A stretch of 20,000 bases of DNA from an uncultured virus (IMG/VR IMGVR_UViG_3300027974_000033) (taxonomy: Duplodnaviria > Heunggongvirae > Uroviricota > Caudoviricetes): IMG/VR virus record IMGVR_UViG_3300027974_000033. One strand, 5' to 3'. This document shows positions 4,680 through 19,446 of the stretch, in pieces (position 1 is the stretch's first letter; the number at the start of each line of letters is the position of its first letter). Below the pieces are notes generated by a model. That model had not been told where the DNA came from. It worked only from the letters and a program-made list of their open reading frames with translations, and did not search any database. A program made the translations under genes and the position numbers.

Positions 4680-4699
4680 AGTATTAGTATACCATAATT

Positions 4700-6593: not shown

Positions 6594-6722
6594 ACTTTAT
6601 TGTATCATTCTATGTATCACTTGATCTTAGGTCTTAGGTCTTATATATTTAATATTTATTATTTATTGATTTACTGACCCCCCGACCCCCCTATTGGAAG
6701 TATACTAAATGAAAATTCTATG

Positions 6723-7373
6723 TCAAGGCATTACGGAAACATTACCAACACGATCAATCCCAAATAATAAAATATTTTTTTGAGATCCTTTTTTAAAAGT
6801 AATTACTGGCATATATAAATTTTGTGTATCTTCTGGTATATAGTACGCATTGTCTGGTATGTCCGCTTTAAACTCTTTGCAGCTGAAGTCCATGTCACAA
6901 CTTAGAAATATTGGAGTATCTCGATCTTGATACCAAGAAAACTTAGCTCCAGGGTTTACATGGTTTTTTGCTATCTGATTATAAAATTGATATAGCCTTA
7001 ATGTAGACTTATCTGTATAGTCATCATGTGGAGAATCATCTAGAAATATCGTATCATACGTCCCAAGGCCATTTAAAGCCTTTTGCCAAGATCCTTCTAC
7101 AATTATGACTCTATGCCTTTGTTCTCCCGCCCACTTACGAGCCTTCTGAAGTACCTCTGGGCTACTTTCAATGATGGTGTGTGACTCTATGTCATGCATC
7201 TGTATTTCAGTGGCTGAAAACCCCATTCCAAAGCCGATTTCCAAAACATGACCTTTGGGATTTAAATTTTTAATAATAGCTTGCATATACGGCTTTTCCC
7301 ATTCCATCATTACCTGGAAATTATTTTTATCAATTAAAATATCTTTGTCGTACTGATCTTTTCCGTATTCCAT
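6723..7373 (-). CDS. Class I SAM-dependent methyltransferase, guanidinoacetate/Rmt2-like; leaderless
   Basis: VMMEWEKPYM, VLEIGFGMG, HTIIE, GSWQ and YDTIFLD; TGCTACAAT ends 6 nt before the ATG. Confidence 0.8.
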   Translation of the reverse strand: MEYGKDQYDKDILIDKNNFQVMMEWEKPYMQAIIKNLNPKGHVLEIGFGMGFSATEIQMHDIESHTIIESSPEVLQKARKWAGEQRHRVIIVEGSWQKALNGLGTYDTIFLDDSPHDDYTDKSTLRLYQFYNQIAKNHVNPGAKFSWYQDRDTPIFLSCDMDFSCKEFKADIPDNAYYIPEDTQNLYMPVITFKKGSQKNILLFGIDRVGNVSVMP

Positions 7374-7573
7374 ATCTTAATTGTAGCATTTGTATTTTAG
7401 TCGACTGCTATTTCATATTTCTAAAAATGTTAATATATTTTTATTATGTATGATACATACCTAAAAACAAAACGGACATTTGGGATAGACCGCACATATT
7501 AAGCGTGAATGTGTCCTATCTCACAGGATAATTCTAAGATTTATTCCGACACGCCGAGAGATAACTTGATAAA

Positions 7574-7595
7574 TGTCAGTCCCCTAGTGTAGAGT
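7574..7595 (+). promoter_or_regulatory. PafBC/RecA-NDp-type promoter 1
   Basis: TGTCAG-tcccctagtg-TAGAGT; CRP-like site 7510-7525; CGACACGCCG 7547-7556. Confidence 0.75.
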
Positions 7596-7628
7596 TATCT
7601 TATAACAACAAACGAAAGGAGTCACACA

Positions 7629-7805
7629 ATGACTCAACTTACAGAAACACTATACAGCACTATTGTGCACGACTTCCATAATGGTGGGGTCAAGTCCTCT
7701 TATGGACTCAATGCCTATACACGCAAGGCTCTATTGCGTGACCTACTCTCTAGCAAGGCTTGCTATTGCATAGAGTGCGTGTGTGAGGTAACTCACACCG
7801 CATAA
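7629..7805 (+). CDS. Hypothetical protein (58 aa, C-terminal CxCxxC)
   Basis: AACGAAAGGAG RBS; MTQLTETLYSTIVHDFHNGG...CYCIECVCEVTHTA. Confidence 0.7.
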   Translation: MTQLTETLYSTIVHDFHNGGVKSSYGLNAYTRKALLRDLLSSKACYCIECVCEVTHTA

Positions 7806-7835
7806 GGCTCACGCTACGGCGTGTCGCCTTGATAA

Positions 7836-7857
7836 TGTCAGCCCACTAGGCTACAAT
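7836..7857 (+). promoter_or_regulatory. PafBC/RecA-NDp-type promoter 2
   Basis: TGTCAG-cccactaggc-TACAAT; perfect TGTGA-N6-TCACA 7782-7797. Confidence 0.75.
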
Positions 7858-7895
7858 ACTTACTATAACTACTAACGAAAAGGATAGAAAATAAA

Positions 7896-8048
7896 ATGAA
7901 GATAACTTACTCACTATGGGACGGCGCTCAACTACTAGGCGTGGATTTCACCGCTAATAGCGCAGACGAAATGAATAAGGTCGTAGCAGACCTAATGAAA
8001 GTTTCTCGTAATGTCGTAGCACATATGCGAAAGGTAGAGCAGAACTAA
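7896..8048 (+). CDS. Hypothetical protein (50 aa)
   Basis: MKITYSLWDGAQLLG...KVEQN; AAAGGA RBS; TAATG overlap with the next gene. Confidence 0.7.
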   Translation: MKITYSLWDGAQLLGVDFTANSADEMNKVVADLMKVSRNVVAHMRKVEQN

Positions 8049-8230
8049 TGTCATACGCATACTCATACCAAACTAACTCAATAGATAAATATAACTCTAT
8101 TCAATCAGATGTCGCAGACGCATACGCATACCTTGATGAAGAAGAAACAGAGCAACCCCCTGTTGATGATTTTGATGATGTAGATGATGAAGAATTGGCG
8201 CAAGTATTCGCACTAAGTTGGGATAACTAA
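8048..8230 (+). CDS. Highly acidic small protein
   Basis: D/E-rich; TAATG-coupled on both sides. Confidence 0.7.
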   Translation: MSYAYSYQTNSIDKYNSIQSDVADAYAYLDEEETEQPPVDDFDDVDDEELAQVFALSWDN

Positions 8231-8367
8231 TGAACTTAGAACTAAACGGATATGGTCTATGCCTAGATAGCGATTGGTTCTATGTCGCACTAGATTGGAA
8301 ACTAATAACACTAACCGCCCTAGTGGTAATCGCCTATAAGATTTATAAGAGAAAGAAGAATAAGTAA
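8230..8367 (+). CDS. Small membrane protein (45 aa)
   Basis: Hydrophobic LITLTALVVIAY followed by KIYKRKKNK; TAATG-coupled. Confidence 0.65.
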   Translation: MNLELNGYGLCLDSDWFYVALDWKLITLTALVVIAYKIYKRKKNK

Positions 8368-8477
8368 TGACTACTAATCGCCTACTAACTACCCTAGTGC
8401 AACTGGGTATTGGTATCCCCGCCCTGCTTATGCTACGCCTTGCTATAAAAGACTTCTTAGAGAATGGACTAGATTAA
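8367..8477 (+). CDS. Small membrane peptide (36 aa)
   Basis: MTTNRLLTTLVQLGIGIPALLMLRLAIKDFLENGLD; TAATG-coupled. Confidence 0.6.
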   Translation: MTTNRLLTTLVQLGIGIPALLMLRLAIKDFLENGLD

Positions 8478-8671
8478 TGAAATCGGAATTAGAGAGAGAT
8501 TTAGAAATCAAAGAAAGTTTTATTGATTTACTAAATGATGTTTATCCTACTGTAAAAATCGGTTACTCTACATTCACACCCGCCGAGATTTTGGAGTGTT
8601 GCGATCCTATCGCTTTTTCTATCGGACTAATTGAGCACCAAGATTATTTAGAAGAATTAGAAGAAGAATAA
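8477..8671 (+). CDS. Acidic hypothetical phage protein
   Basis: ORF track; TAATG-coupled. Confidence 0.75.
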   Translation: MKSELERDLEIKESFIDLLNDVYPTVKIGYSTFTPAEILECCDPIAFSIGLIEHQDYLEELEEE

Positions 8672-8695
8672 CGGCGTGTCGGCTTGACAATGTCA

Positions 8696-8729
8696 AGCTG
8701 GCCCGCAAAGGCACGGGGTCGGGCGTGTC
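8696..8729 (+). repeat. 34-bp exact GC-rich direct repeat, copy 1
   Basis: AGCTGGCCCGCAAAGGCACGGGGTCGGGCGTGTC, identical at 10268-10301. Confidence 0.9.
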
Positions 8730-8825
8730 GTTACGGGCTTTGCATAGAACCCCTAGAATTTTGTGATTTTTATCACATAGGTTGAGCGTCTCAGTATTTG
8801 GATTTACTGGCTAGTAATTATCTTA

Positions 8826-8847
8826 TGTCAGTGGGTTCGTGTATAAT
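8826..8847 (+). promoter_or_regulatory. PafBC/RecA-NDp-type promoter 3
   Basis: TGTCAG-tgggttcgtg-TATAAT; perfect CRP-like site 8762-8777. Confidence 0.8.
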
Positions 8848-8881
8848 GTCTACTATAACAACAACGAAAGAAGGTCAATTC

Positions 8882-9001
8882 ATGAACCTAGATGAATTCA
8901 AGGCGCATGTTATCGCCACCCGTCAAGCAAGCAAGGCAGAAGCCTTGTCAGTGCTATCTGCTACAATGTCAGTATCAACAACAACGAAAGAAGGAAAGTA
9001 A
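8882..9001 (+). CDS. Hypothetical protein (39 aa; start revised from 8798)
   Basis: AACGAAAGAAGG RBS before MNLDEFKAHV. Confidence 0.6.
   Translation: MNLDEFKAHVIATRQASKAEALSVLSATMSVSTTTKEGK
8946..8967 (+). promoter_or_regulatory. PafBC/RecA-NDp-type promoter 4 (intragenic)
   Basis: TGTCAG-tgctatctgc-TACAAT. Confidence 0.75.
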
Positions 9002-9195
9002 TGTCAGCAAATGTTTACAATGTAACCGATTTACTAATCGGAAAAACTTATCGCTCAAATTCCGTAACTGGAGAAATTATCTCAGCGGAAATTCACCCGC
9101 AAGCAATTTGGTATGAAGGCGCAGAAGCGTATCGTGTCCAAATTAGAAAAAATACTGGCGGTTATACTTATCGCAGTTTGGCGGTAAATAAATGA
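9001..9195 (+). CDS. Hypothetical phage protein
   Basis: ORF track; AACGAAAGAAGG RBS. Confidence 0.75.
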   Translation: MSANVYNVTDLLIGKTYRSNSVTGEIISAEIHPQAIWYEGAEAYRVQIRKNTGGYTYRSLAVNK

Positions 9196-9356
9196 ACACA
9201 ATGATTGACGAAAATGAATTTTATACAATTCACGAACCAACTTTTATGTGTTGTGATGAAAGCCAATTTCGTTATGTGTGTAAAGCACACGGCGAAAGTA
9301 TGGGTTGCTACTTTTGCGAATTTGACTACTCTAATGATTGCGAGGAACAACACTAA
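9192..9356 (+). CDS. Cys/His-rich small protein (54 aa)
   Basis: MNTMIDENEF..MCCDESQFRYVCKAHGESMGCYFCEF..; ATGA and TAATG overlaps. Confidence 0.65.
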   Translation: MNTMIDENEFYTIHEPTFMCCDESQFRYVCKAHGESMGCYFCEFDYSNDCEEQH

Positions 9357-9511
9357 TGGGATACATTGAAATTTTCCGAATGGATAACGAAGGTGCTGGC
9401 TGGGTAGATTTATCCGAAGCAACACCCGATGAATTATTCAACATTGAATTAGGTCTAGTCAATGAAGGTGCGTTTGACGGCTCTTTATTTATGAATGGGG
9501 AAAACGAATGA
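9356..9511 (+). CDS. Acidic hypothetical protein (51 aa)
   Basis: MGYIEIFRMDNEGAGWVDLSEATPDELF..; GAGGA RBS. Confidence 0.65.
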   Translation: MGYIEIFRMDNEGAGWVDLSEATPDELFNIELGLVNEGAFDGSLFMNGENE

Positions 9512-9636
9512 GCGAAATTGCTGGAATGTGGATTTGCTCTAATTGCGATACTCTCGCCATTGTGTCAGTGGAAACTGATACAATACTTGTAACACAATGT
9601 AAATGCGTAACTAACGAAAGGGAAACTAATGAATAA
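9508..9636 (+). CDS. Small CxxC/CxC protein (42 aa)
   Basis: MSEIAGMWICSNCDTLAIVSVETDTILVTQCKCVTNERETNE; ATGA overlap. Confidence 0.55.
   Translation: MSEIAGMWICSNCDTLAIVSVETDTILVTQCKCVTNERETNE
9563..9584 (+). promoter_or_regulatory. PafBC/RecA-NDp-type promoter 5 (intragenic)
   Basis: TGTCAG-tggaaactga-TACAAT. Confidence 0.75.
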
Positions 9637-9775
9637 ATACACTTTTGGCGTTTGGCTAGACATAGACGCAGAGGATGAAAATCAAGCGTTATCTTTATTT
9701 GATGAGGTTGTAAAGAAAAATCCTTTTGTTTCAGACTCTTATTGTTTTGAATGGAAAGAGGTTGCTAATGTATAA
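9629..9775 (+). CDS. Hypothetical protein (48 aa)
   Basis: AACGAAAGGG RBS; MNKYTFGVWLDIDAEDENQAL.. Confidence 0.65.
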   Translation: MNKYTFGVWLDIDAEDENQALSLFDEVVKKNPFVSDSYCFEWKEVANV

Positions 9776-9971
9776 AATAACTCTAGCCTATGACGGAAAT
9801 GCCCCACACTGGCAGGGCGATTACTATGATGAAATGGAAGCGTGGTCAGCGTTTTTCAAATTCACCGACTGGGGATTTGCTGATGAATTCTCAACTGTAA
9901 ATATTTACACTCCCGAATTGAAATGCTACACAAAAAACTTTTATCGTAGCGGAATGGTGGTAGCAAAATGA
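9768..9971 (+). CDS. Hypothetical phage protein (start revised from 9726)
   Basis: AGAGG RBS before MYKITLAYDG. Confidence 0.7.
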   Translation: MYKITLAYDGNAPHWQGDYYDEMEAWSAFFKFTDWGFADEFSTVNIYTPELKCYTKNFYRSGMVVAK

Positions 9972-10159
9972 TGACACGCAAAGACTATGTGGCAACGGCA
10001 GAAATTCTAAAGTTTGCTAGCGACAAAACGCACCCTGCTTTATTTTCTAAAATCGTAAATGATTTTGCTGAAATGTTTGCGAAAGATAATGAGCGATTTG
10101 ATGTAAAACGATTTCACGAAGCGAGTGGATACAATGTTCCTAAACTCACTTCAAGATAA
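9968..10159 (+). CDS. Hypothetical phage protein
   Basis: MMTRKDYVATAEIL...FAKDNERFDVKRF; ATGA overlap. Confidence 0.75.
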   Translation: MMTRKDYVATAEILKFASDKTHPALFSKIVNDFAEMFAKDNERFDVKRFHEASGYNVPKLTSR

Positions 10160-10265
10160 GGTAAAACGAATTCAGGAATTGCGTCGCAGTAATGCGGCGC
10201 AACCTGTTCGTAATAAAAAAAAATACACACGCAAGATCAAACATAAAAATAAACTTGACAATTAG
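10134..10265 (+). CDS. Very basic 43-aa peptide
   Basis: MFLNSLQDKVKRIQELRRSNAAQPVRNKKKYTRKIKHKNKLDN; not in the ORF track. Confidence 0.65.
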   Translation: MFLNSLQDKVKRIQELRRSNAAQPVRNKKKYTRKIKHKNKLDN

Positions 10266-10267
10266 CC

Positions 10268-10301
10268 AGCTGGCCCGCAAAGGCACGGGGTCGGGCGTGT
10301 C
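10268..10301 (+). repeat. 34-bp exact GC-rich direct repeat, copy 2
   Basis: Identical to 8696-8729. Confidence 0.9.
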
Positions 10302-10352
10302 TTTAAGGGTGTGATCAATATCACCCTGGAAATTTGGGCCAGGATTGGAATA

Positions 10353-10374
10353 TGTCGGTCCATTCTGCTATACT
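10353..10374 (+). promoter_or_regulatory. PafBC/RecA-NDp-type promoter 6
   Basis: TGTCGG-tccattctgc-TATACT; CRP-like site 10310-10325. Confidence 0.8.
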
Positions 10375-10401
10375 TGCCATTCAACCAACGATTGGGCTCC
10401 A

Positions 10402-11121
10402 ATGAAATTAAAACGTTCTAATGATAGAAAGGTGGCTAACCTTGTCACAAAAAATGGAAAGCAAGCCGCAATTGCGAACACGTTCGGATTACCTGCAGGA
10501 AAGAATTATTCATGCCCTGGTGCCACTAGTATTTGTGAGAGTGTTTGCTACGCAGGAAAACTTGAAAAACTATTCCCAGGAGTAAAAACTAACCTATTAC
10601 ACAATTGGGAATTACTTAAAGACGCCGATACCGATACAATGCTTATTCTATTAGATGAGATGATTGTTGAATTTATTGCTGATTGTGAAAAGAAAAGTGC
10701 TCCTAAATTATTCCGTATCCACTGGGACGGAGATTTCTTTAATGATACTTATACTTATGCCTGGAAAGTAATTATTGAAAATCATCCCGATGTTCAATTT
10801 TGGGTTTATACTCGTGTAAAGTCTGCAGCGCTTATTCTTAAGGATGTTGTTAATCTTTCACTATACTATTCTACCGATGATGAAAATAAAGAAATAGCAT
10901 TCGATTTAAAAACTAATTCTAAAATACGTCTTGCTTATCTAGGGAAGACATTCGCTGCAACCGAAGACACAATGAAAGAATTGACTGGCAAGCCTGGCGC
11001 TAAGTGCCCTGAGAATATGAAGAGTATTCCACTTATCTCTAGCAATGGGTCCGCCTGCGTTTCTTGTGGTCTCTGCGTTTATGGTAAAGCAGATATTAGA
11101 TTTTCTGCGAGTAAAAAATAA
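10402..11121 (+). CDS. Gene product 88 (GP88) family protein, Cys-rich (start revised from 10345)
   Basis: FGLPAGKNYSCPGATSICESVCYA, FRIHWDGDFF, FWVYTR and C-terminal CP..CVSCGLC. Confidence 0.8.
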   Translation: MKLKRSNDRKVANLVTKNGKQAAIANTFGLPAGKNYSCPGATSICESVCYAGKLEKLFPGVKTNLLHNWELLKDADTDTMLILLDEMIVEFIADCEKKSAPKLFRIHWDGDFFNDTYTYAWKVIIENHPDVQFWVYTRVKSAALILKDVVNLSLYYSTDDENKEIAFDLKTNSKIRLAYLGKTFAATEDTMKELTGKPGAKCPENMKSIPLISSNGSACVSCGLCVYGKADIRFSASKK

Positions 11122-11270
11122 TGTATGACATTCTTGGATCTTTGATCGGAATCATATTAATTTGTTTCTTGTGCTCACCAATTGTGCTAGCAATATATAT
11201 GTGGACGCATGCAGAATCAGATATTGATAATGACGGTAAAAAAGATTTGCCTAATCGTTGGGATAGGTAA
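11121..11270 (+). CDS. Small membrane protein (49 aa)
   Basis: MYDILGSLIGIILICFLCSPIVLAIYMW..DIDNDGKKD..; TAATG overlap. Confidence 0.6.
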   Translation: MYDILGSLIGIILICFLCSPIVLAIYMWTHAESDIDNDGKKDLPNRWDR

Positions 11271-11318
11271 TGGTGTGTCGAGTTGACAATTGTCAGCTCG
11301 GCCCCTATATGTAGGGGG

Positions 11319-11348
11319 TTATCCACAGGCTTACGATACTTATCCACA
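11319..11348 (+). promoter_or_regulatory. Pair of perfect DnaA boxes
   Basis: TTATCCACA at 11319-11327 and 11340-11348. Confidence 0.7.
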
Positions 11349-11408
11349 ACCCCTGGAATTGTGAGTATTATCACAAAAGCTGCGACACGCCGAGAATGGA
11401 TTAGGTAA

Positions 11409-11430
11409 TGTCAGTGGACTATGCTAAAAT
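11409..11430 (+). promoter_or_regulatory. PafBC/RecA-NDp-type promoter 7
   Basis: TGTCAG-tggactatgc-TAAAAT; perfect CRP-like site 11360-11375; CGACACGCCG 11383-11392. Confidence 0.8.
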
Positions 11431-11459
11431 ACTCTTATTCCAACAACGAAAGGTAAGTT

Positions 11460-11684
11460 ATGTCTAATCTAATGAAAGTTCCACACACAGTTGAGTTCGA
11501 GGCAGTTATTGACTTGGATAAAATTCCCGCTAATTTATTGCCTGCGCTAATTGCGCTTGATACTTATTCAGTTACAAAAATGTGTAAGGAAGCGACACTT
11601 CACGCACTTACTGAGTCTAATGTATTACAAACTGCTAATGAGTTCAACACTTGGGCTGAAGTAACTATAAAGGAGAATAACTAA
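11460..11684 (+). CDS. Hypothetical phage protein
   Basis: AACGAAAGG RBS; ORF track. Confidence 0.75.
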   Translation: MSNLMKVPHTVEFEAVIDLDKIPANLLPALIALDTYSVTKMCKEATLHALTESNVLQTANEFNTWAEVTIKENN

Positions 11685-11950
11685 TGGGATACACAACAGC
11701 AGTAAGTCTATCTGAAGAATTAGATTTAGAGGTTGCACTAGGTTATCACTTACAAGGTAATCATTACCCGCCCGTTCCACTTTCTATGGTAGAGCCTTGC
11801 ATCGAAGCAATTGACGCATACTATGAAGAAGATTTTGATCGAGCCATCGAAATGCCTGAAGGCGTATCGTATAAAGGTAAGACACACGCACCCGCTTGGG
11901 CTATCATTGAACAGCATCACTTAGAGGCGTGGCTGCCTGAAAGTGATTAG
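11684..11950 (+). CDS. Hypothetical phage protein
   Basis: HLQGNHYPPVP...IIEQHHLEAW; AAGGAG RBS; TAATG overlap. Confidence 0.8.
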   Translation: MGYTTAVSLSEELDLEVALGYHLQGNHYPPVPLSMVEPCIEAIDAYYEEDFDRAIEMPEGVSYKGKTHAPAWAIIEQHHLEAWLPESD

Positions 11951-11995
11951 CATCACACAATAACTTTCTCAAATACTGAGATAGGGCTAGACTAA

Positions 11996-12017
11996 TGTCA
12001 GACCCCAATGCTATAAT
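11996..12017 (+). promoter_or_regulatory. PafBC/RecA-NDp-type promoter 8
   Basis: TGTCAG-accccaatgc-TATAAT; AGTGA-N6-TCACA 11942-11957. Confidence 0.78.
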
Positions 12018-12046
12018 TACAACCCTAACAAAGAAAAGAGGCAAAA

Positions 12047-12229
12047 ATGACAATAGAAGGAAAACTCTATCAGGTTGGCGATTTATTCACCACCCTAAAG
12101 TCAAAAAAGACAGGTGTTATCAAAGAGATACACCCACAGGCATCTGGCTCGGTGCGTGTGCTACTGGAAATGCCAACGAGGGAAACTCGCTGGACTTCAG
12201 TATCCGCTAAGACACTACTAGGCGCATAG
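12047..12229 (+). CDS. Small hypothetical protein, possibly SH3/KOW-like
   Basis: YQVGDLF..KTGVIKEI..VRVLLE pattern; AGAGG RBS. Confidence 0.7.
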   Translation: MTIEGKLYQVGDLFTTLKSKKTGVIKEIHPQASGSVRVLLEMPTRETRWTSVSAKTLLGA

Positions 12230-12246
12230 TCTAAAGGCAGGGGGGT

Positions 12247-12268
12247 TGTCAGACCCCCCTGCTATACT
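12247..12268 (+). promoter_or_regulatory. PafBC/RecA-NDp-type promoter 9, embedded in a hairpin
   Basis: TGTCAG-acccccctgc-TATACT; GCAGGGGGG/CCCCCCTGC inverted repeat 12237-12262. Confidence 0.78.
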
Positions 12269-12303
12269 ATCCATAACAACAACCAACCAACGAAAGGTAT
12301 CAA

Positions 12304-12720
12304 ATGTCAAGACAAATCACAGTAAAGGTCGCAACGACCAAAGTAATCAAGGCACTAGAAGGCACTCTTGCTAAACTAGAAAAAGACTACGCATCAACAG
12401 GTGCTAACGAAGCAAAGTATCAAAAGGCAGTAGAAGCGTGGAAAAAGGAAATTGGTAAGTGGGCTATTGCTAATTTCTCAAAGGCTGAAAACCTACGCAC
12501 AAACTATCGCTCTTGGAACAACACTCTCAATGTTGATTTTGACATCATCACAAAAGAGGGAACTTTCCCTGCTGAACCTGAAAAGGATTTTGAGGTTATC
12601 CATCAGCACAGTTATCGTGAGATGAAAGAGGACATCACAAATGCTCTCACAATTCTCAAGATGACAGATGAGGAAACAGTAAATGCTTCTACAATGAAGC
12701 AAATTGCTAAGTATCTCTAA
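12304..12720 (+). CDS. Hypothetical phage protein
   Basis: 138-aa ORF; AACGAAAGG RBS. Confidence 0.85.
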   Translation: MSRQITVKVATTKVIKALEGTLAKLEKDYASTGANEAKYQKAVEAWKKEIGKWAIANFSKAENLRTNYRSWNNTLNVDFDIITKEGTFPAEPEKDFEVIHQHSYREMKEDITNALTILKMTDEETVNASTMKQIAKYL

Positions 12721-12729
12721 CTAATACAA

Positions 12730-12766
12730 CGACCTGAGTATGTCGCCAAACTGCTCTCCTTCGGGA
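12730..12766 (+). other. Predicted H-type RNA pseudoknot plus cUUCGg hairpin
   Basis: S1 CGAC/GTCG; S2 GAGTA/TGCTC; then TCC-TTCG-GGA. Confidence 0.55.
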
Positions 12767-12788
12767 AACTACTAACAAAGGTAATACA

Positions 12789-13049
12789 ATGGCAAATCGT
12801 TTTAGAGTTGAAATCTATGACGCAAATAAAGCAAATGACATCACGATTTATTCGGATCAAGGTGTTGATAAAGAATATCTAACTGAATTAGTATTCAGTA
12901 ACATCAGAAACTTTAGCGGAAAAATAAATGCTTATGTTTTTGATAACGTAAAGAAAAAGAAAACAACTGCTATGTTTCTTGATGAGAACACAGTTCAGTT
13001 TAATAAAAACTTAATTAACAATGCGACAAAGGTAGAGTTAGGGAGTTAA
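12789..13049 (+). CDS. Hypothetical phage protein
   Basis: ORF track; AAAGG RBS. Confidence 0.75.
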   Translation: MANRFRVEIYDANKANDITIYSDQGVDKEYLTELVFSNIRNFSGKINAYVFDNVKKKKTTAMFLDENTVQFNKNLINNATKVELGS

Positions 13050-13078
13050 TCCCTAGCTCCGCCCCCGCTTTTGAGGGG

Positions 13079-13110
13079 TTATCCACAACGTTACGACAAC
13101 CTGTGGAAAA
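13079..13110. promoter_or_regulatory. Inverted pair of DnaA boxes
   Basis: TTATCCACA 13079-13087; TGTGGAAAA 13102-13110 (1 mismatch). Confidence 0.65.
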
Positions 13111-13175
13111 CCCTGAAATTTTGTGAGATTACTCACACGCATCAAATCGGACAAATGACTAACTAATCTAGACAA

Positions 13176-13197
13176 TGTCAGTGCCACCTGTTATACT
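13176..13197 (+). promoter_or_regulatory. PafBC/RecA-NDp-type promoter 10
   Basis: TGTCAG-tgccacctgt-TATACT; perfect CRP-like site 13122-13137. Confidence 0.8.
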
Positions 13198-13228
13198 TAC
13201 AACTAATCAAACGAAAGGTAAAAAATAT

Positions 13229-14233
13229 ATGGCTCACAATCTAGAAATGGAAAATGGCGAAGTTGCTTTCGCTCTCCGTGGCGCACCTGCTTGGCACAAC
13301 CTAGCAAATCGCATCTTTACAAAAGATGAGGAAGTTACAACTAGTCTAATGCTTGAAGAAGCAAAATTGGCTAATTGGAATGTTCGTCTATCTCCAATCA
13401 CCGAACACATTCCAGAATCTTGGAATGATGTATCTACCGCATCTCTTGTCATTCGTGATAACCCATTCAACAAGGGTGTAGATGTTCTCGCAACTGTCGG
13501 CAAGCGTTACAAGCCTGTGCAGAATGAGGAACTATTCGCATTTGCTGATGCAATTCACGATGCCAATGCTGATTGCCGTTGGGAATCTGCTGGCTCATTG
13601 AAAAAGGGTAAAGTAGTTTTTGGAACTGTGGACATTCCACGCACAATGGTTCTTGACCCACAAGGCGCCAATGATGAAACTAAGTTATATCTAATCGTAT
13701 GGACATCACACGATGGTTCTGTTGCTGTTCAAGCAGCCGTTACACCTGTTCGTGTTGTATGCCAGAATACACTAAACCTTGCAATGAAGAATGCTAAGCA
13801 ATCTTTCAAGATTCGCCATACGCAATCTGTTGAAGGTCGCATTCAAGTTGCTCGTGAAACTCTTGGGCTTGCTCTTGGATACTTTGATGAATTTGAAGTT
13901 CAAGCGAAAGCGCTTTACTCACAAGCAATCACCGATGCTGAATTCTCTAAATTGATTCAGACAATCTATCCTAAGCCTGAAAAAGATGCTAAGGGTGCAA
14001 TCAAGAAATGGGAAAATAAGGTTGTTCTAATTGATGACCTTTATCATAACTCACCAACTAACGCTACAATCAAGGGAACTAAGTGGGGTGCGTTCAATGC
14101 ACTAACTGAGCGCCTTGATTATTATCGTTCAGGTCGTGGCAATGGCGAAACACTTATGGCGGGTGCATCAGGGTTTGACCCAGTTCTAACCGCAGAAAAA
14201 AATAAGTTGTATCGTATGGTTGCAACTTTCTAA
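13229..14233 (+). CDS. DUF932 / TIGR03299 phage-plasmid family protein (start revised from 13175)
   Basis: MAHNLE..PAWH, VGKRYKPVQN, ESAGSL, SHDGS, TPVRVVCQNTL, IRHT and GTKWGAFNALTE. Confidence 0.9.
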   Translation: MAHNLEMENGEVAFALRGAPAWHNLANRIFTKDEEVTTSLMLEEAKLANWNVRLSPITEHIPESWNDVSTASLVIRDNPFNKGVDVLATVGKRYKPVQNEELFAFADAIHDANADCRWESAGSLKKGKVVFGTVDIPRTMVLDPQGANDETKLYLIVWTSHDGSVAVQAAVTPVRVVCQNTLNLAMKNAKQSFKIRHTQSVEGRIQVARETLGLALGYFDEFEVQAKALYSQAITDAEFSKLIQTIYPKPEKDAKGAIKKWENKVVLIDDLYHNSPTNATIKGTKWGAFNALTERLDYYRSGRGNGETLMAGASGFDPVLTAEKNKLYRMVATF

Positions 14234-14246
14234 AAAAAATAAATAA

Positions 14247-14274
14247 AAATCCTGAGCAAGATTTAAAACTGCTC
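14247..14274 (+). other. Predicted H-type RNA pseudoknot, second copy
   Basis: S1 AAATC/GATTT; S2 GAGCA/TGCTC. Confidence 0.55.
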
Positions 14275-14287
14275 ACATTTTTTATTT

Positions 14288-14361
14288 GGTCTGTTAGCTC
14301 AGTTGGTTAGAGCGCTACCCTGTCACGGTAGAGGTCGACGGTTCAAGTCCGTTACAGATCG
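14288..14361 (+). tRNA. tRNA-Asp, anticodon GUC; CCA not encoded
   Basis: GGTCTGT/ACAGATC acceptor, GCTC/GAGC D arm, CTACC-CTGTCAC-GGTAG anticodon arm, GACGG-TTCAAGT-CCGTT T arm, discriminator G. Confidence 0.95.
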
Positions 14362-14436
14362 CAAAGCGCCCGCAATAGTAAGGGACCCAAAACTGTGTTA
14401 CGAGTCACAAAACAATTCCCTGGAATCTATTGTATA

Positions 14437-14458
14437 TGTCAGTGGGCCCTGGTACAAT
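14437..14458 (+). promoter_or_regulatory. PafBC/RecA-NDp-type promoter 11 (predicted leaderless transcript)
   Basis: TGTCAG-tgggccctgg-TACAAT, ending 6 nt before ATG 14465; CRP-like site 14394-14409. Confidence 0.8.
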
Positions 14459-14464
14459 TCTCTC

Positions 14465-15130
14465 ATGACCAACGAACTAGTATCAAGTAAGTATACATTT
14501 GTCTGCGACCCAAATGAATGTGATTGCTTAATTGAATTAACATCATCTGATGGATTTGGATTCCCATCAGGTGTGACAGAACTCACCTGCCCATGTGGTC
14601 GCAAGACTACCTTGGTGTCAGTGGAGCATGCTACAATTGCACCTTCAACCCAAACGAAAGAGGAAAAAATGGAAGAGACAACAACACCTGCAGTAACAGT
14701 TCCTGATACATATAATTCTAACCTATTAGTTACATACAAAGTAATCCGTGGTTATTCAGATGCAGAATATGCAACTGATAAAGTTGCTAGCATTGAATGG
14801 GACCTGCACAATGGGCGCCAATCACAGAAGCGTGTAACTACTCTGCTATCTCAGATTGATGCAGTCAAAGAAATTATCTGTGAGGCATATGCTGATTCAG
14901 GTGACCAAGATACACTTCGTGCAATTGCTGAAGCGCTTTCAATTGAACTTATCAAAGAAGTTGAATTTACCGCATCTATTGAAGTTACTGGAACATATTC
15001 ATATAACATTCTTGAGAATGACTATGACTTAGACCTTGAGTCAGAAGTTACAGATGCTCTTTATGCCGATTCAAACAATGGCAACATTGAAATTGGCGAC
15101 ACCGAAGTATGTAATGTGCGTGAGTGCTAA
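14465..15130 (+). CDS. Acidic hypothetical protein with Cys-rich N-terminus; probable second in-frame start at 14669
   Basis: The track start at 14303 lies inside tRNA-Asp; MTNELVSSKYTFVCDPNECDC..CPCG; internal RBS AACGAAAGAGG before MEETT. Confidence 0.75.
   Translation: MTNELVSSKYTFVCDPNECDCLIELTSSDGFGFPSGVTELTCPCGRKTTLVSVEHATIAPSTQTKEEKMEETTTPAVTVPDTYNSNLLVTYKVIRGYSDAEYATDKVASIEWDLHNGRQSQKRVTTLLSQIDAVKEIICEAYADSGDQDTLRAIAEALSIELIKEVEFTASIEVTGTYSYNILENDYDLDLESEVTDALYADSNNGNIEIGDTEVCNVREC
14616..14637 (+). promoter_or_regulatory. PafBC/RecA-NDp-type promoter 12 (intragenic)
   Basis: TGTCAG-tggagcatgc-TACAAT. Confidence 0.75.
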
Positions 15131-15333
15131 TGTATTTTGAATTAACTGCTCCCGATAGGCTATCTCTTGAGATGGCTTATTGGGATGCACAAATTATGGG
15201 ACTTGACCCTGAGTTTATGCCACCGTTGACTTTCAATGTTGGAACTGGTAGTATTGAGAAAGTAAGTCGCATTCGTGATAAGTATAATTTAAAAGAATCA
15301 TACTGGTCAGACAAAGAAGCGACAGGATACTAG
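15130..15333 (+). CDS. Hypothetical phage protein
   Basis: TAATG overlap; MYFELTAPDRL. Confidence 0.7.
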   Translation: MYFELTAPDRLSLEMAYWDAQIMGLDPEFMPPLTFNVGTGSIEKVSRIRDKYNLKESYWSDKEATGY

Positions 15334-15341
15334 GAGATAAA

Positions 15342-15488
15342 ATGTCAGACTACAAAGATGGATTTCAAGACGGGTACAAGTTTGCTCGTGAAGAAATAAT
15401 GGAAAAGCTATCAGAGATTGATATCGCAGACATTGATTCTTGGATCCTTGACCGTCTTTCAGAAATGATTGAGGGTGGCAACCTGTGA
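15342..15488 (+). CDS. Acidic hypothetical protein (48 aa)
   Basis: AGGAGA RBS; MSDYKDGFQDGYKFAREEI..; TGATG overlap. Confidence 0.7.
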   Translation: MSDYKDGFQDGYKFAREEIMEKLSEIDIADIDSWILDRLSEMIEGGNL

Positions 15489-15676
15489 TGGCTGAATGGC
15501 TTAAGTGTGATCAGTGTGCAGCTCAGGCAATGTGGGAAGCAAAGAAAGATGAGATGTCTCTTTATTTTTGTGGACATCATAAAAACAAACAGGGCGAGTC
15601 ACTTGTGGACTGGGCCCATGAAATGGTACAATTACTAAACTACGAGCAAGAACAACAACTAGCAAAGGCGGAATAA
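15488..15676 (+). CDS. Small zinc-finger protein (CxxC...CxHH)
   Basis: CDQCAAQA...LYFCGHH; GAGGG RBS. Confidence 0.75.
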   Translation: MAEWLKCDQCAAQAMWEAKKDEMSLYFCGHHKNKQGESLVDWAHEMVQLLNYEQEQQLAKAE

Positions 15677-15677
15677 A

Positions 15678-16046
15678 ATGGGCGACAGAGCAAACTTTGG
15701 ATTCAGAGATTCCAAGGAAAATATTGTATTTTTATATGGACATTGGGCAGGGCACCGAATGCTAGAGAATTTAGCGGACGCCGTGCAGATTGCACATCCA
15801 CGTTGGAATGATGAAGCATATGCTACACGTATTGCTATCAGCCAAATGATTGGTGATGAGTGGGCTAGCGAAACAGGCTGGGGCATTAGTGTTAATCAAT
15901 TGGCAGATAATGAACACAAGGTCCCAATTATTGATTGGAAAAATAAAACGTTTACGTTAATGGAAGAAGACCTGCAGACTGTAGTATTTAGTACAACCTT
16001 GGATGCATTTGTGGCCAAGTATTGTAGTCAACTAAGTATGGTATAA
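15678..16046 (+). CDS. Hypothetical phage protein
   Basis: MGDRANF..LYGHWAG..RWNDEAYATRI..TGWGI. Confidence 0.8.
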   Translation: MGDRANFGFRDSKENIVFLYGHWAGHRMLENLADAVQIAHPRWNDEAYATRIAISQMIGDEWASETGWGISVNQLADNEHKVPIIDWKNKTFTLMEEDLQTVVFSTTLDAFVAKYCSQLSMV

Positions 16047-16053
16047 TTAATCT

Positions 16054-16203
16054 AGGACCTTGGTCCTGGTTTTAATACAGAAATGAAGTGGTGCGTCTAA
16101 CTAGTCTACGGGCCAGGCGCTAAGTAAAGCGGTTTATTTCTTTCGTTGGAAATCAGCAGCCATATTCATTAACCCCCCAGCTTGATCTGGGGGGTATTTT
16201 TTT
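16054..16203 (+). ncRNA. Candidate ~150-nt structured small RNA
   Basis: TGGTATAAT 16039-16047 upstream, no meaningful ORF, several stems, and an intrinsic terminator at the end. Confidence 0.4.
16172..16203 (+). terminator. Intrinsic terminator
   Basis: ACCCCCCAG-cttgat-CTGGGGGGT followed by ATTTTTTT. Confidence 0.85.
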
Positions 16204-16317
16204 GCCCACAAAAGAAATGAGGGTATCATATGTGTTTTACGGATGTCAAGTCAAAACCCTGAAAATCCCAAGCTTTGAGATCATGTGGCATGAATCACAT
16301 GCATTTGCTCTTCCATA

Positions 16318-16339
16318 TGTCAGTGGTCTGATATATAAT
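16318..16339 (+). promoter_or_regulatory. PafBC/RecA-NDp-type promoter 13
   Basis: TGTCAG-tggtctgata-TATAAT; TGTGG-N6-TCACA 16284-16299. Confidence 0.78.
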
Positions 16340-16366
16340 TAGAACATATCAACGAAAGGATATAAA

Positions 16367-17140
16367 ATGCCAAATTGGTGTTACAACACATTAACTATTC
16401 AAGGACCTAAGTCTGAGGTAGATATGATTAAAGATAGATTGAATAAACCTTTTACATTAGCCCAAGAAACATTTGGTATGGGTGATATATCTACTATGGG
16501 ATTTCCTACTAAGATTGAACAGGTATCTTATTCTAATCCCGTTTTTTCTTTTCATAACATCCACTCATATAAAGATGACGGAATTACTGATGAGGAATAT
16601 GCCTGCCAGCCTACACGACTAGGAACAGACACTAGTGCTCCTGATTGGTTTGCTAAAGAAGTTGCACATGCTAAAACTCAGAAGGATTGGTATTCATGGA
16701 ATACATCTAATTGGGGAACCAAATGGGATGTTGCTGTCCGTGATGAAGATGAATATCCTGAAACAGAATTACTTGAATATAAGTCAGAAGGTGATGACAA
16801 CTGGGTTGTATATAAATATGAAACTGCTTGGTCACCTGCTGTAACTATCTTAACTAAACTAAGTAATCTTGTTCCGAACTGCCTGCTCACATTAGAGTAT
16901 GAAGAAGAAACAGGCTGGGGTGGGGAATATGAGATTGTCCGTGGTGAAGTAAAAGAATTGGCTGAATGGGAAAACCGTTGCTATGCTTGCCAGTCTTTTG
17001 ATACATTGAGTTATTGTGAAGATGACTGTGGAGAATTCTGCTCAGAATGTAATCAAGGCTCTTGGCAGGATGAAAAGGCAATGGCAGAATGTCAGACCCA
17101 TAGTGTATTATTAGAGCCTAAAGAAAAGGTGGAGGCATAA
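16367..17140 (+). CDS. DUF1281/YubB (Api92-like) ferredoxin-like domain protein with Cys-rich tail
   Basis: MPNWCYN, DWYSWNTSNWGTKW, YETAWSP and LEYEEETG; C-terminal CxxC motifs. Confidence 0.8.
   Translation: MPNWCYNTLTIQGPKSEVDMIKDRLNKPFTLAQETFGMGDISTMGFPTKIEQVSYSNPVFSFHNIHSYKDDGITDEEYACQPTRLGTDTSAPDWFAKEVAHAKTQKDWYSWNTSNWGTKWDVAVRDEDEYPETELLEYKSEGDDNWVVYKYETAWSPAVTILTKLSNLVPNCLLTLEYEEETGWGGEYEIVRGEVKELAEWENRCYACQSFDTLSYCEDDCGEFCSECNQGSWQDEKAMAECQTHSVLLEPKEKVEA
17090..17111 (+). promoter_or_regulatory. PafBC/RecA-NDp-type promoter 14 (intragenic)
   Basis: TGTCAG-acccatagtg-TATTAT. Confidence 0.6.
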
Positions 17141-17370
17141 TGGCAAGTTTCTTAGAAGATGTAAATCAAATGGTAATTGACGCTGTATATCAAGAGATAG
17201 CAGAACAATTACTAGATGACTGGATTAATAATAATCTAAATGAAGGACAGTATTATGCAGATAAACAATTTGCACAAATGTCAGGAGATAAATTTATCTT
17301 TGAGCAATTTAATAAGTTCTATGAACTTAAAGAAGGAGACGATGATTATATGGAGTATGACTTATGCTAG
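17140..17370 (+). CDS. Acidic hypothetical protein
   Basis: GGAGG RBS; TAATG overlap. Confidence 0.75.
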   Translation: MASFLEDVNQMVIDAVYQEIAEQLLDDWINNNLNEGQYYADKQFAQMSGDKFIFEQFNKFYELKEGDDDYMEYDLC

Positions 17371-17546
17371 GTTATACTGAATCTGATCTAAATGAAATGA
17401 TTAATGCTGTACATGACGCAAAGCTTTTCTATCTTAGGACCCCGTCCGATTTAATGGATAAGTCTTTGCTAACTAATAGTTTGCTAAAGACAAATGATTT
17501 CTTGCAAGGACTATGGGCGGAGGGTTACTTTGACCACACTAACTAA
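17364..17546 (+). CDS. Hypothetical phage protein
   Basis: MLGYT...FLQGLWAEGYF; GGAG RBS. Confidence 0.7.
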   Translation: MLGYTESDLNEMINAVHDAKLFYLRTPSDLMDKSLLTNSLLKTNDFLQGLWAEGYFDHTN

Positions 17547-17715
17547 ATCTTCTAAGTTCCTAGAATATATGAAGATACATCTAATTAGTCTTAACCAGGA
17601 CTTAGAAATGAATCCTGAATCTATCAATGTAATTGATATTCCAGGACAAATATATGCAACCGAACATTTGTTGTCAGTGGCTACTGATATAATGAATGAA
17701 AACGAGAGGATATAA
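17530..17715 (+). CDS. Hypothetical protein (probable TTG start)
   Basis: GGAGGG RBS before TTG 17530, in frame with the track ORF 17494-17715. Confidence 0.6.
   Translation: MTTLTKSSKFLEYMKIHLISLNQDLEMNPESINVIDIPGQIYATEHLLSVATDIMNENERI
17672..17693 (+). promoter_or_regulatory. PafBC/RecA-NDp-type promoter 15 (intragenic)
   Basis: TGTCAG-tggctactga-TATAAT. Confidence 0.78.
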
Positions 17716-17716
17716 A

Positions 17717-17995
17717 ATGAATTCAGAAGACATTGGGCTCCCGCCCCACTTGCAACGTTTAGTTAATGCAGGTGTTAATGGATTAGATATAATGCATGGC
17801 GAACTAAAGAATCTAATGTTGATTGCCGAAGAGCAATTGGCTTGGGCTCAGGCAATTGAAGATGAAACCGAAGAGGCAATGGATTCAATGGCACGTACAG
17901 AGGCGGAGGGACGACTAGATACTCTAGTTGAACTATATAAACTAACATATGATTTATCATTTGCTATAGGAGAAAAGGAAGGGCAAAAAGTATGA
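17717..17995 (+). CDS. Hypothetical phage protein (start revised from 17696)
   Basis: AACGAGAGGA RBS before MNSEDIG. Confidence 0.75.
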   Translation: MNSEDIGLPPHLQRLVNAGVNGLDIMHGELKNLMLIAEEQLAWAQAIEDETEEAMDSMARTEAEGRLDTLVELYKLTYDLSFAIGEKEGQKV

Positions 17996-18225
17996 CATAC
18001 GAGCCAAGTCTAGAAATCCTGGAAATGGAATACTCTTGCTCACCTGGAGGAGTAGATACATTTGAGGTGTATGATAAAACAGATATACCTTTATCTGTAC
18101 CAATATATGAGACTGAATCTTTGACGGATGCCGTGCTCTACTGTTATAATTTAGGGAAAGACTTTACTGTCAAGACATTAGCGGAATGGAATGAAAGGGA
18201 GTTAGCATATGAAGCCAGCCGATAA
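17992..18225 (+). CDS. Hypothetical phage protein
   Basis: ATGA overlap; ORF track. Confidence 0.7.
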   Translation: MTYEPSLEILEMEYSCSPGGVDTFEVYDKTDIPLSVPIYETESLTDAVLYCYNLGKDFTVKTLAEWNERELAYEASR

Positions 18226-18526
18226 AGATAAACTAAACGAATGTTTAAAGATTCTAGACACCACCGACCTTGGCTTGTCATTAGTATGGCTGTGGACATG
18301 GTCCACAATTAACAACATTTTTGAGGATGAGACCTACAAGCAGAACTGCACCATAGATGACATGTGGGACCACCTCTGCGAGGCCGTGGAGGCTGGTATG
18401 GGCTTCTCCCTAGAGTACGGGGCGGAACAACATCAGGAAGACGTCCTTGAATGGATGATGAATCGTGAGTACATTGTCGACACAATGTTTGAAGAAGAGG
18501 AAGAAGACGAAGATGAGGATGAGTGA
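18209..18526 (+). CDS. Acidic hypothetical phage protein
   Basis: GGGAG RBS; poly-E/D tail. Confidence 0.75.
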   Translation: MKPADKDKLNECLKILDTTDLGLSLVWLWTWSTINNIFEDETYKQNCTIDDMWDHLCEAVEAGMGFSLEYGAEQHQEDVLEWMMNREYIVDTMFEEEEEDEDEDE

Positions 18527-18656
18527 TCAATACATCGATGAGATCCTTAACAGGGCCCAACAGCTTTTGTGGGGCGGATCAGAAACAGAGAACATCGAAG
18601 CACACAACCTTATATCTAATCTAATTAAAGAAAGAGTAGAACAAGTTTCTAACTGA
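18519..18656 (+). CDS. Hypothetical protein (45 aa; start revised from 18465)
   Basis: MSDQYIDEILNRAQQLLWGGS..; overlaps the upstream stop. Confidence 0.6.
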   Translation: MSDQYIDEILNRAQQLLWGGSETENIEAHNLISNLIKERVEQVSN

Positions 18657-18684
18657 GGGCAAGATTTTTAGTTTACGGTGACTA

Positions 18685-18713
18685 TTTACAAACCCGTGAA
18701 AAGTTGCTATAAT
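18685..18713 (+). promoter_or_regulatory. Housekeeping-sigma promoter TTTACA-N17-TATAAT with extended -10
   Basis: TTTACA 18685-18690; TGCTATAAT 18705-18713. Confidence 0.7.
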
Positions 18714-18745
18714 TAAAGCAAACCGATCTAGAAAGGATCAAACAC

Positions 18746-18895
18746 ATGACAACAAAGCGTGAATATCTAAAGCAGCAAGGCATCACAGTAGGTGTACGTG
18801 GCCGCTTCTCAGGAGCAGCTAAGGTAGCTCTACAAGAAGCTGCAGCAAAGGGAATTACATTTACATCAGAGGCGCCTGCTAACAAGGCCAAGTAA
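18746..18895 (+). CDS. Stand-alone Lsr2-like DNA-binding domain (49 aa)
   Basis: MTTKREYLKQQGITVGVRGRFSGAAKVALQEAAAKG..; matches the Lsr2 C-terminal pattern REWAxxxGxxVxxRGRI; AGAAAGGA RBS; not in the ORF track. Confidence 0.75.
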   Translation: MTTKREYLKQQGITVGVRGRFSGAAKVALQEAAAKGITFTSEAPANKAK

Positions 18896-18900
18896 GCCAG

Positions 18901-18947
18901 GGACGGGGTTAGGGCTTCGTTGGTCCTTGACCCCGTTTCTTATTTTT
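18901..18947 (+). terminator. Probable intrinsic terminator
   Basis: GACGGGGTTAGGG..CCTTGACCCCGTT hairpin followed by a T-rich tract. Confidence 0.65.
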
Positions 18948-18977
18948 GATACAATAGACAGTTAGGCGGAGGCGGAT

Positions 18978-19346: not shown

Positions 19347-19410
19347 TATTAGGCATATGACAATGAATAGATGAATGCCTGGTTAGATAGATAAACATAT
19401 CTAGCCCAAA

Positions 19411-19446
19411 TTATCCACAGGGTTATCCACATCCTGTGGATTTTTT
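19411..19446 (+). terminator. Terminator-like hairpin built from DnaA boxes
   Basis: ATCCACAGG..CCTGTGGAT followed by TTTTT; TTATCCACA at 19411-19419 and 19423-19431. Confidence 0.6.

Follow-up and report, generated by a model that had tools for sequence, protein, structure and literature searches.

Which factor, and of what origin, reads a promoter-like element that recurs throughout a block of small genes in an uncultured phage? The question is raised by a stretch of DNA 20,000 nucleotides (nt) long from an uncultured virus of the class Caudoviricetes (IMG/VR record IMGVR_UViG_3300027974_000033; hereinafter, the window, that is, the whole stretch analyzed), in which the block at 7510-17717 on the + strand comprises some 30 small genes, arranged in about 16 short units that each follow a promoter of the TGTCAG type. 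The pattern TGTCRG-N10-TAnnnT has 16 matches in the window, all on the + strand between 7574 and 17693, with none in 1-7573 or in 17694-20000, compared to a mean of 0.28 and a maximum of 3 matches in 200 shuffles. A first-pass annotation of this DNA had listed 15 such sites and reported none in the left part of the window: each of the 15 is found precisely where it had been placed, the left part indeed contains no match, and a 16th exact match, at 17279, has to be added, whereas the number of genes under the series, estimated at about 35, is nearer 30. The predicted promoters, with TGn denoting an extended -10 box (TG at -15/-14), are the following.

7574-7595, + strand: promoter, TGTCAG-N10-TAGAGT; TTGATA 18 nt before the -10 box; ATG at 7629
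7836-7857, + strand: promoter, TGTCAG-N10-TACAAT; TTGATA 17 nt before the -10 box; ATG at 7896
8826-8847, + strand: promoter, TGTCAG-N10-TATAAT; ATG at 8882
8946-8967, + strand: promoter, TGTCAG-N10-TACAAT; TGn; ATG at 9001
9563-9584, + strand: promoter, TGTCAG-N10-TACAAT; TGn; ATG at 9629
10353-10374, + strand: promoter, TGTCGG-N10-TATACT; TGn; GP88-family gene, ATG at 10402
11409-11430, + strand: promoter, TGTCAG-N10-TAAAAT; TGn; ATG at 11460
11996-12017, + strand: promoter, TGTCAG-N10-TATAAT; TGn; -35-like TAGACT; ATG at 12047
12247-12268, + strand: promoter, TGTCAG-N10-TATACT; TGn; ATG at 12304; G+C-rich hairpin just upstream in relatives
13176-13197, + strand: promoter, TGTCAG-N10-TATACT; TGn; DUF932 gene, ATG at 13229
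14437-14458, + strand: promoter, TGTCAG-N10-TACAAT; TGn; ATG at 14465, 6 nt past the -10 box (leaderless layout)
14616-14637, + strand: promoter, TGTCAG-N10-TACAAT; TGn; within the open reading frame (ORF) 14465-15130; in-frame ATG at 14669
16318-16339, + strand: promoter, TGTCAG-N10-TATAAT; ATG at 16367, product with an Api92-like domain at the C-terminus
17090-17111, + strand: promoter, TGTCAG-N10-TATTAT; ATG at 17140
17279-17300, + strand: weak match, TGTCAG-N10-TATCTT; inside a gene; next ATG at 17364
17672-17693, + strand: promoter, TGTCAG-N10-TATAAT; TGn; ATG at 17717

The 15 strong sites, and perhaps the 16th as well, are very likely real promoters of a distinct class. When the spacer is varied from 4 to 21 nt, N10 yields 16 sites on the + strand and none on the - strand, against 0-4 for each of the other lengths, and the TAnnnT partner at this distance is present for 16 of the 23 TGTCRG hexamers on the + strand as opposed to 0 of the 5 on the - strand. 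The hexamer is TGTCAG at 15 sites and TGTCGG at one (10353). At 15 sites, 6-44 nt separate the -10 box from the start codon, and at 17279, 63 nt do, so that the proposed placement within about 40 nt of a gene start stands for the former and fails for the latter; the leader resembling a ribosome-binding site that had been described between most of the sites and their genes is represented by an ACGAAA-type leader at 10 of the 16. The match at 17279 is the weakest and may be a chance occurrence, given its TATCTT box, its location inside a gene and the distance to the next start. A repeat artefact was also considered as the source of the sites and was ruled out, the flanks being mutually non-homologous. 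The 14616 promoter, which lies inside the ORF 14465-15130 and heads the in-frame ATG at 14669, makes two forms of the respective protein possible.

Are these, then, ordinary promoters of the housekeeping type? Canonical sigma-70-type promoters carry a TTGACA-like hexamer 16-18 nt before the -10 box, and in the series such a hexamer, matching the sigma-70 consensus with at least 9 of 12 positions for the whole promoter, is found at only 5 of the 16 sites (7566, 7829, 10345, 11988 and 13169), which confirms the weak -35 hexamers noticed at some copies in the first pass. A scan of the window with the sigma-70 consensus returns 45 matches against 41 +/- 7 expected, that is, no overall enrichment. 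The bipartite, strictly spaced organization of the motif might suggest an alternative sigma factor, encoded by either host or phage, for which TGTCAG would be the -35 element. However, sigma-70-family factors span 16-18 nt between the two promoter elements, and a gap of 10 nt is far below that; moreover, what lies downstream is a -10 box of the housekeeping type, with TGn, and no sigma domain was detected in the scanned phage proteins. Accordingly, we view this possibility as highly improbable.

A much closer correspondence is with the promoters that depend on PafBC, the actinobacterial activator. As far as the accessible parts of the cited papers go, the genome-wide PafBC motif of Mycobacterium smegmatis is tGTCgg(N10)tA(N3)T, the 5' part of which occupies -23 to -28; PafBC promoters have a canonical -10 box and no -35 consensus; and PafB reads the GTC triplet, with PafBC inserted between region 4 of sigma A and the DNA (PMC8635444). 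PafBC is activated by single-stranded DNA (ssDNA) and joins the polymerase already on the promoter (PMC11804915), its level is constant under stress (PMC6789036), and promoters of this class, known as RecA-NDp, are located ahead of DNA-damage genes in Actinomycetales, Streptomyces included (PMC5087735). The assignment of the phage motif to the PafBC/RecA-NDp layout, made in the first pass, is borne out in that the hexamer, the orientation and the 10-nt spacing are all equal to those of the published motif: at all 16 phage sites, the element is at about -28 to -23, exactly N10 ahead of TAnnnT, and the sites share no -35 consensus. The likeness to RecA-NDp promoters of the recA P1 type further extends to the single orientation and the position just upstream of genes. 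The differences are that the bacterial promoters precede DNA-repair genes, whereas the phage ones precede phage genes mostly without a known function, and that the phage sites feature a near-invariant hexamer, TGn in most cases, 15-16 copies within 10 kb, and CRP-type boxes upstream (see below).

The host PafBC is the most economical candidate for the reader because hexamer, orientation and spacer coincide with the known -26 activator of the phylum, and we are inclined, by some way short of confidence, to accept as the best explanation of the sequence pattern that the phage borrows the PafBC switch of its host for this block. Under this scenario, the host RNA polymerase containing sigma A would bind the -10 box (often TGnTAyAAT), with TGTCAG lying exactly 10 nt ahead of this near-consensus element; ssDNA-bound host PafBC would then insert between sigma region 4 and the DNA and read the GTC of the hexamer, a mechanism denoted sigma adaptation; and about 30 small, fast-shuffling genes would become tied to the ssDNA alarm of the cell. 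Possible sources of the ssDNA are the phage DNA itself, as it enters or replicates, and the action of nucleases on that DNA. The sequences directly establish the sites, with their geometry, conservation and confinement to a single block; PafBC as the reader, ssDNA as the trigger and the timing are what we infer; the working of PafBC is taken from the papers cited above.

Does the phage come from a host in which such a reader would be expected? The window is a mosaic near-copy of the 116,155-bp virus record G001, beginning at G001 base 54,855: the proteins encoded at 7.6-10.2 kb and 15.5-19.3 kb are 100% identical to those of G001, whereas those of the block between 10.4 and 15.5 kb (10402-15333) are 66-98% identical or absent. 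A WhiB protein scores above the Pfam cut-off in all four complete genomes of this group, and the 176 phage records matched in a search with WhiB are those of Streptomyces (127), Mycobacterium (32), Rhodococcus (9) and Arthrobacter (8) phages, with no others. The portal protein is 56-57% identical to the portals of Streptomyces phages of the family Stanwilliamsviridae, and the GP88, DUF7455 and Lsr2-like genes likewise point to an actinophage. These matches and gene contents identify the source as a low-GC phage of Actinomycetota (the GC content of the window is 27-43% per kb), and the family to which it belongs is one of WhiB-encoding lake phages of about 105-120 kb related to Streptomyces phages. 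The RNA libraries that hold parts of the phage are labelled lake or fresh water; by megablast, the block matches none of the cultured phages.

The promoter series is conserved in relatives of this family. In G001, 16 of the 17 motif matches fall within 62.4-72.6 kb, the same block as in the window, and in each of the three other complete relatives (G002, G003 and G004), there are 17 matches in a single block of about 10-12 kb, on one strand, compared to 1-6 stray matches elsewhere and 0-3 matches to a reversed control pattern. Seventeen further records, chosen from a scan with a stricter pattern, were searched, and 15 of these contain 6-17 sites on one strand. The CheckV completeness estimates translate into genomes of 107-120 kb for all 15 records with a cluster, which are therefore best regarded as fragments from the same family, and of about 215-220 kb for the two without one. 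Even lineages in which the DUF932 protein is only 51-57% identical retain the TGTCRG-N10 layout, and so do divergent lineages in which most other genes of the block are unmatched in the stretches fetched.

When the 175 matches in 12 sources are pooled (174 are on the dominant strand), 109 distinct sites remain, with TGTCAG in 103 and TGTCGG in 6. Outside the positions fixed by the pattern, the hexamer is preceded by A-A (in 76 and 80 sites, respectively) and followed by T/A at +6, by G/C only at +7 and +8, by A/C at +12 and by T-G at +13 and +14 (73 and 83 sites), with a TAyAAT-like -10 box; the -35 zone contains at most about 0.5 bit per position, that is, no conserved -35 element. Upstream of the DUF932 gene, 8 distinct sequences share invariant TGTCAGTG and CTGTTATACT, and 3 of the spacer positions between these vary. 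The GP88 gene is preceded by three unrelated contexts, with the motif present in each, and more generally, the order of the cassettes and their upstream contexts vary between relatives at the promoters. The promoter-early stem-loop (PeSL) cassettes in the hyperplastic regions of T4-type phages provide an analogy: there too, small genes of unknown function each have their own promoter and a nearby hairpin, and the units are reshuffled between relatives at promoter boundaries. The type of promoter and the phylum of the host are different, and the role of the promoters as recombination points in the block is suggested by these comparisons.

The layout of some units also bears on where transcription would start. 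Leaderless genes are common in actinobacteria, and upstream of GP88 in four relatives (L004, L005, L006 and L009), the arrangement is TATAAT-N7-ATG; an ATG 6-7 nt past the -10 box, in these cases and at 14437 in the window, is as expected if transcription begins about 7 nt beyond that box. Contigs from four lake metatranscriptome runs (4 studies) map on the block, some of them running through promoters, which is a weak hint of expression given that contigs reveal neither starts nor strand, that their depth cannot rank genes and that carry-over of DNA is possible. Cover is near zero over 5337-7337 and present over the block, the lack of cover as such being no finding. Several joints in these contigs adjoin promoter ends, consistent with reshuffling of cassettes among relatives; having been placed at 90% likeness with short sides, the joints may stem from relatives, and we give them little weight. 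Contig cover in all four RNA libraries extends over the gene at 940-1488 and the small ORFs that follow it; this lysozyme-like SLT_3 gene (+ strand) is part of the segment 668-2001, with small ORFs downstream.

Could the host itself be identified? The phage WhiB, compared to genome contigs, retrieved a 23-kb phage-like contig from a Bacteroidia-labelled bin (90% identity) and a weak match from Oscillospiraceae. The phage RecA, compared to a protein collection, had phage RecAs only among its best 120 matches, and a search of representatives returned divergent RecAs without taxonomy. When nine RecAs of the cellular type were aligned and searched against metagenome contigs, 80 recA loci were obtained, in two of which the 400 nt ahead of recA contain the motif (at -118 in L249 and at -150 in L299). 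In the latter, a contig with 46% GC, the site at 2340-2361 reads TGTCAGTGG-N7-TATAAT and lies between divergent dnaE and recA genes.

It must be acknowledged that several observations weigh against a host PafBC reader. The genes downstream of the phage sites are not DNA-repair genes. The -10 boxes at most sites are near consensus, and such promoters may fire without an activator; because of the TGn at 10 of the 16 sites and the -35-like hexamers at 5, some activator-independent activity is plausible. The Stanwilliamsviridae phages Muntaha and Enygma of Streptomyces, the hosts of which have RecA-NDp promoters, contain a single match each to TGTCRG-N10-TAnnnT, which is the chance level; the top bipartite patterns of Muntaha are instead TTGACA-N18 (17 against 0.99 expected) and TTGACA-N17 (16 against 0.99), or 33 with N17/18-TAnnnT in total. 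Among the records searched, no unrelated phage lineage with the motif was found; the motif clusters belong to a single phage family, which may have a factor of its own, and most of the phage ORFs belong to no known family, such that an unrecognized adaptor could hide among them. Finally, the neighbours of the two metagenomic recA genes with the motif (dnaE; an extracytoplasmic function (ECF) sigma factor with its anti-sigma factor, HAD/AAA) do not show an actinobacterial origin of these loci.

The strength of the -10 boxes would also fit promoters of the extended -10 kind, served by sigma A alone and independent of any activator, with TGTCAG being a control site located in the spacer, either an operator through which a repressor turns the block off or a high-affinity decoy that captures PafBC and blunts the damage response of the host. 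Apart from the near-consensus boxes, the TGn and the -35-like hexamers, this interpretation is favored by the hexamer being stricter across the family than would be expected from the published motif, in which some letters are lower-case. Yet 6 of the 16 sites lack TGn, no repressor candidate is found in the scanned proteins, and the spacing to the -10 box is constant in all 175 matches from the 12 sources; although in that set the spacing is fixed by the pattern, the window is enriched for N10 only, and constant spacing fits contact with the bound polymerase better than a free-standing operator. We consider such an arrangement quite unlikely.

The confinement of the motif to one family, on the other hand, brings up a phage-encoded reader. 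How different are the relatives that lack the series? Muntaha and Enygma resemble the lake phage not only in the portal but also in WhiB (46-52% identical), GP88 (50%) and a similar genome size; unlike the lake phage, they have no TGTCAG series, and their GC content is 53% versus 38%. Only one of 34 block proteins, GP88, is matched in Muntaha. In G001, the top bipartite pattern is TGTCAG-N10 (16 against 1.22 expected), and second in kind is TTGACA-N18-TAnnnT (8 against 1.37), mostly on the - strand and outside the block. Judged from these comparisons, the lake lineage carries a lineage-specific module with its own promoter class, which amounts to a distinct regulatory class yet leaves room for a lineage-specific phage factor.

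Such a factor would be an adaptor, absent from the family libraries, that reads TGTCAG and redirects the host sigma A in the way MotA and AsiA of phage T4 do; it would be made from canonical promoters, the block would constitute a 'middle' class, and the likeness to PafBC would be a matter of convergence or mimicry. The T4 middle promoters (sigma appropriation by MotA/AsiA, mentioned as a kindred mode in the accessible part of PMC8635444) are indeed similar in that an element near -30 replaces the -35 box and the housekeeping sigma of the host is used, and differ in the element and the spacing, in that T4 encodes the reader and in that the element of the lake phage matches the site of a host activator. 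The cluster-bearing records (15 of the 17 further ones, all 107-120 kb), the motif-free Streptomyces relatives, the abundance of orphan ORFs and the presence in the genome of canonical promoters that could produce the factor first are all compatible with an adaptor. But such an independent system would have to converge on the activator of the host phylum in hexamer, in orientation and in the 10-nt length of the spacer.

The phage proteins were accordingly searched for a reader. Pfam scans of 33 window proteins, of 94 G001 proteins of at least 100 amino acids and of 60 further G001 proteins, as well as a PHROG scan of 69 proteins, detected no WYL, helix-turn-helix (HTH), sigma, MotA or AsiA match, and WYL (PF13280) was found in 0 of the 3 complete relatives searched. 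The only regulator-like proteins in these scans are WhiB and a small protein with an Lsr2-like N-terminal domain. WhiB is a poor candidate since it also occurs in the motif-free Streptomyces relatives; for the genes of the first two units (7629-8671), the stretches fetched from the two lineages that diverge most, both of which keep the motif, contain no match. The negative is absence of evidence only, most of the ORFs being orphans. On the alternatives left by the first-pass annotation, a host regulator or a WYL/HTH mimic of the phage, the latter finds no counterpart in the scanned proteins, and without a WYL protein in the phage, the host reader is the simpler of the two. All told, an adaptor encoded by the phage appears unlikely to us, and the host PafBC is retained as the preferred reader.

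If the reader is indeed a host protein, is PafBC the only host input? When up to 1 mismatch is allowed, the CRP/GlxR-type box TGTGA-N6-TCACA occurs 10 times in 7510-16299 against 0.78 expected, and all 10 copies are positioned 34-64 nt ahead of a TGTCAG promoter, as follows (no strand is assigned to these boxes).

7510-7525: CRP/GlxR-type box, 1 mismatch; 64 nt before the 7574 promoter
7782-7797: CRP/GlxR-type box, TGTGA-N6-TCACA; 54 nt before the 7836 promoter
8762-8777: CRP/GlxR-type box; 64 nt before the 8826 promoter
10310-10325: CRP/GlxR-type box, 1 mismatch; 43 nt before the 10353 promoter
11360-11375: CRP/GlxR-type box; 49 nt before the 11409 promoter
11942-11957: CRP/GlxR-type box, 1 mismatch; 54 nt before the 11996 promoter
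13122-13137: CRP/GlxR-type box; 54 nt before the 13176 (DUF932) promoter; kept in relatives
14394-14409: CRP/GlxR-type box, 1 mismatch; 43 nt before the 14437 promoter
14572-14587: CRP/GlxR-type box, 1 mismatch; 44 nt before the 14616 promoter
16284-16299: CRP/GlxR-type box, 1 mismatch; 34 nt before the 16318 promoter

Nine of the ten offsets (34, 43, 43, 44, 54, 54, 54, 64 and 64) follow steps of about 10 nt, and the boxes probably add a second host input. In this respect, the series, with boxes upstream of 10 of its 16 promoters, is reminiscent of class I CRP promoters such as that of the Escherichia coli lac operon and of actinobacterial GlxR/Crp sites, in which the offsets similarly proceed in steps of about 10 nt. 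Unlike those, the phage boxes are paired with a -26 element, and their centres, calculated for an assumed start of transcription, miss the E. coli positions by about 2 nt.

Other elements and genes of the window and of G001 complete the picture. LexA boxes (CGAAC-N4-GTTCG) are absent from the window. With regard to an RNA complementary to the shared leader, the leader complement is absent from the + strand of the window, and the exact leader is absent from the - strand of G001. Just past the series, there are two canonical-looking promoters, and the window further encodes two tRNAs and the Lsr2-like protein; these features and the oxygenase-rich stretches of G001 are listed here.

18121-18150, + strand: canonical-looking promoter, TTGACG-18-TATAAT, 11/12, TG; just past the series; by consensus match only
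18685-18713, + strand: canonical-looking promoter, TTTACA-17-TATAAT, 11/12, TG; before the Lsr2-like gene; by consensus match only
18746-18895: small protein with an Lsr2-like N-terminal domain (PHROG 6269, E 3.5e-7), behind a canonical-looking promoter
14288-14362, + strand: tRNA-Asp (GTC), inside the promoter block
4481-4556, - strand: tRNA-Ile (TAT), outside the promoter block
L020 14240-19836; L022 16933-19779; L023 247-1557; L024 10704-11537: oxygenase-rich stretches of G001

The sequence TTATCCACA, of the DnaA-box type, has six exact copies in the window (2606, 11319, 11340, 13079, 19411 and 19423), several of them paired and directly upstream of promoters, and TTGTCCACA with at most 1 mismatch has 20 matches against 4.6 expected; such copies may represent an origin or DnaA-binding sites. 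The G001 genome encodes a DnaE-type polymerase, primase, DnaB, RecA and a class II ribonucleotide reductase, along with the portal, capsid, protease and terminase of a large tailed phage. Nearly all of its genes are on the - strand, the promoter block being on the + strand. In addition, G001 contains an unusually large number, at least 14, of genes for 2OG-Fe(II) oxygenases, JmjC and Asp/Arg-hydroxylase-like proteins, beside which there are sulfotransferases, an APS kinase and a carbamoyltransferase. This set may have a role in the modification of the virion or of the DNA.

What would a phage gain from listening to PafBC? Signals of the ssDNA kind are also those by which WYL regulators turn on bacterial defences. 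A tentative extension, which we hold improbable in its full form, is that the block consists of shuffling cassettes for host takeover or counter-defence that are placed under the ssDNA alarm of the host, with the PafBC sites also draining PafBC from the repair genes. Then, ssDNA produced by host nucleases or by the metabolism of the phage DNA would cause PafBC to fire the phage genes, and dozens to hundreds of near-perfect copies of the site would deplete the constant pool of PafBC. A literature search, made in part by titles and the openings of abstracts, found no account of phage promoters of the PafBC type; the accessible part of one paper (PMC12848934) cites Rafique et al. 2025 (ACS Infect Dis) on PafBC and mycobacteriophage resistance.

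So far, PafBC and sigma adaptation have been known solely as a bacterial DNA-damage response, and if the cassettes work as proposed, the phage would provide the first instance of sigma adaptation being exploited by a virus. Should the host PafBC indeed be the reader, viruses would be able to plug into an ssDNA-sensing WYL activator, in parallel to the use of LexA/RecA by temperate phages. The promoters of the block would then be strong, compact, consensus-like PafBC promoters suitable for tests of the mechanism, for which an in vitro assay is described in the accessible part of PMC11804915. They would also offer a handle on gene control in the abundant, hard-to-grow actinobacteria of lakes and in their phages.

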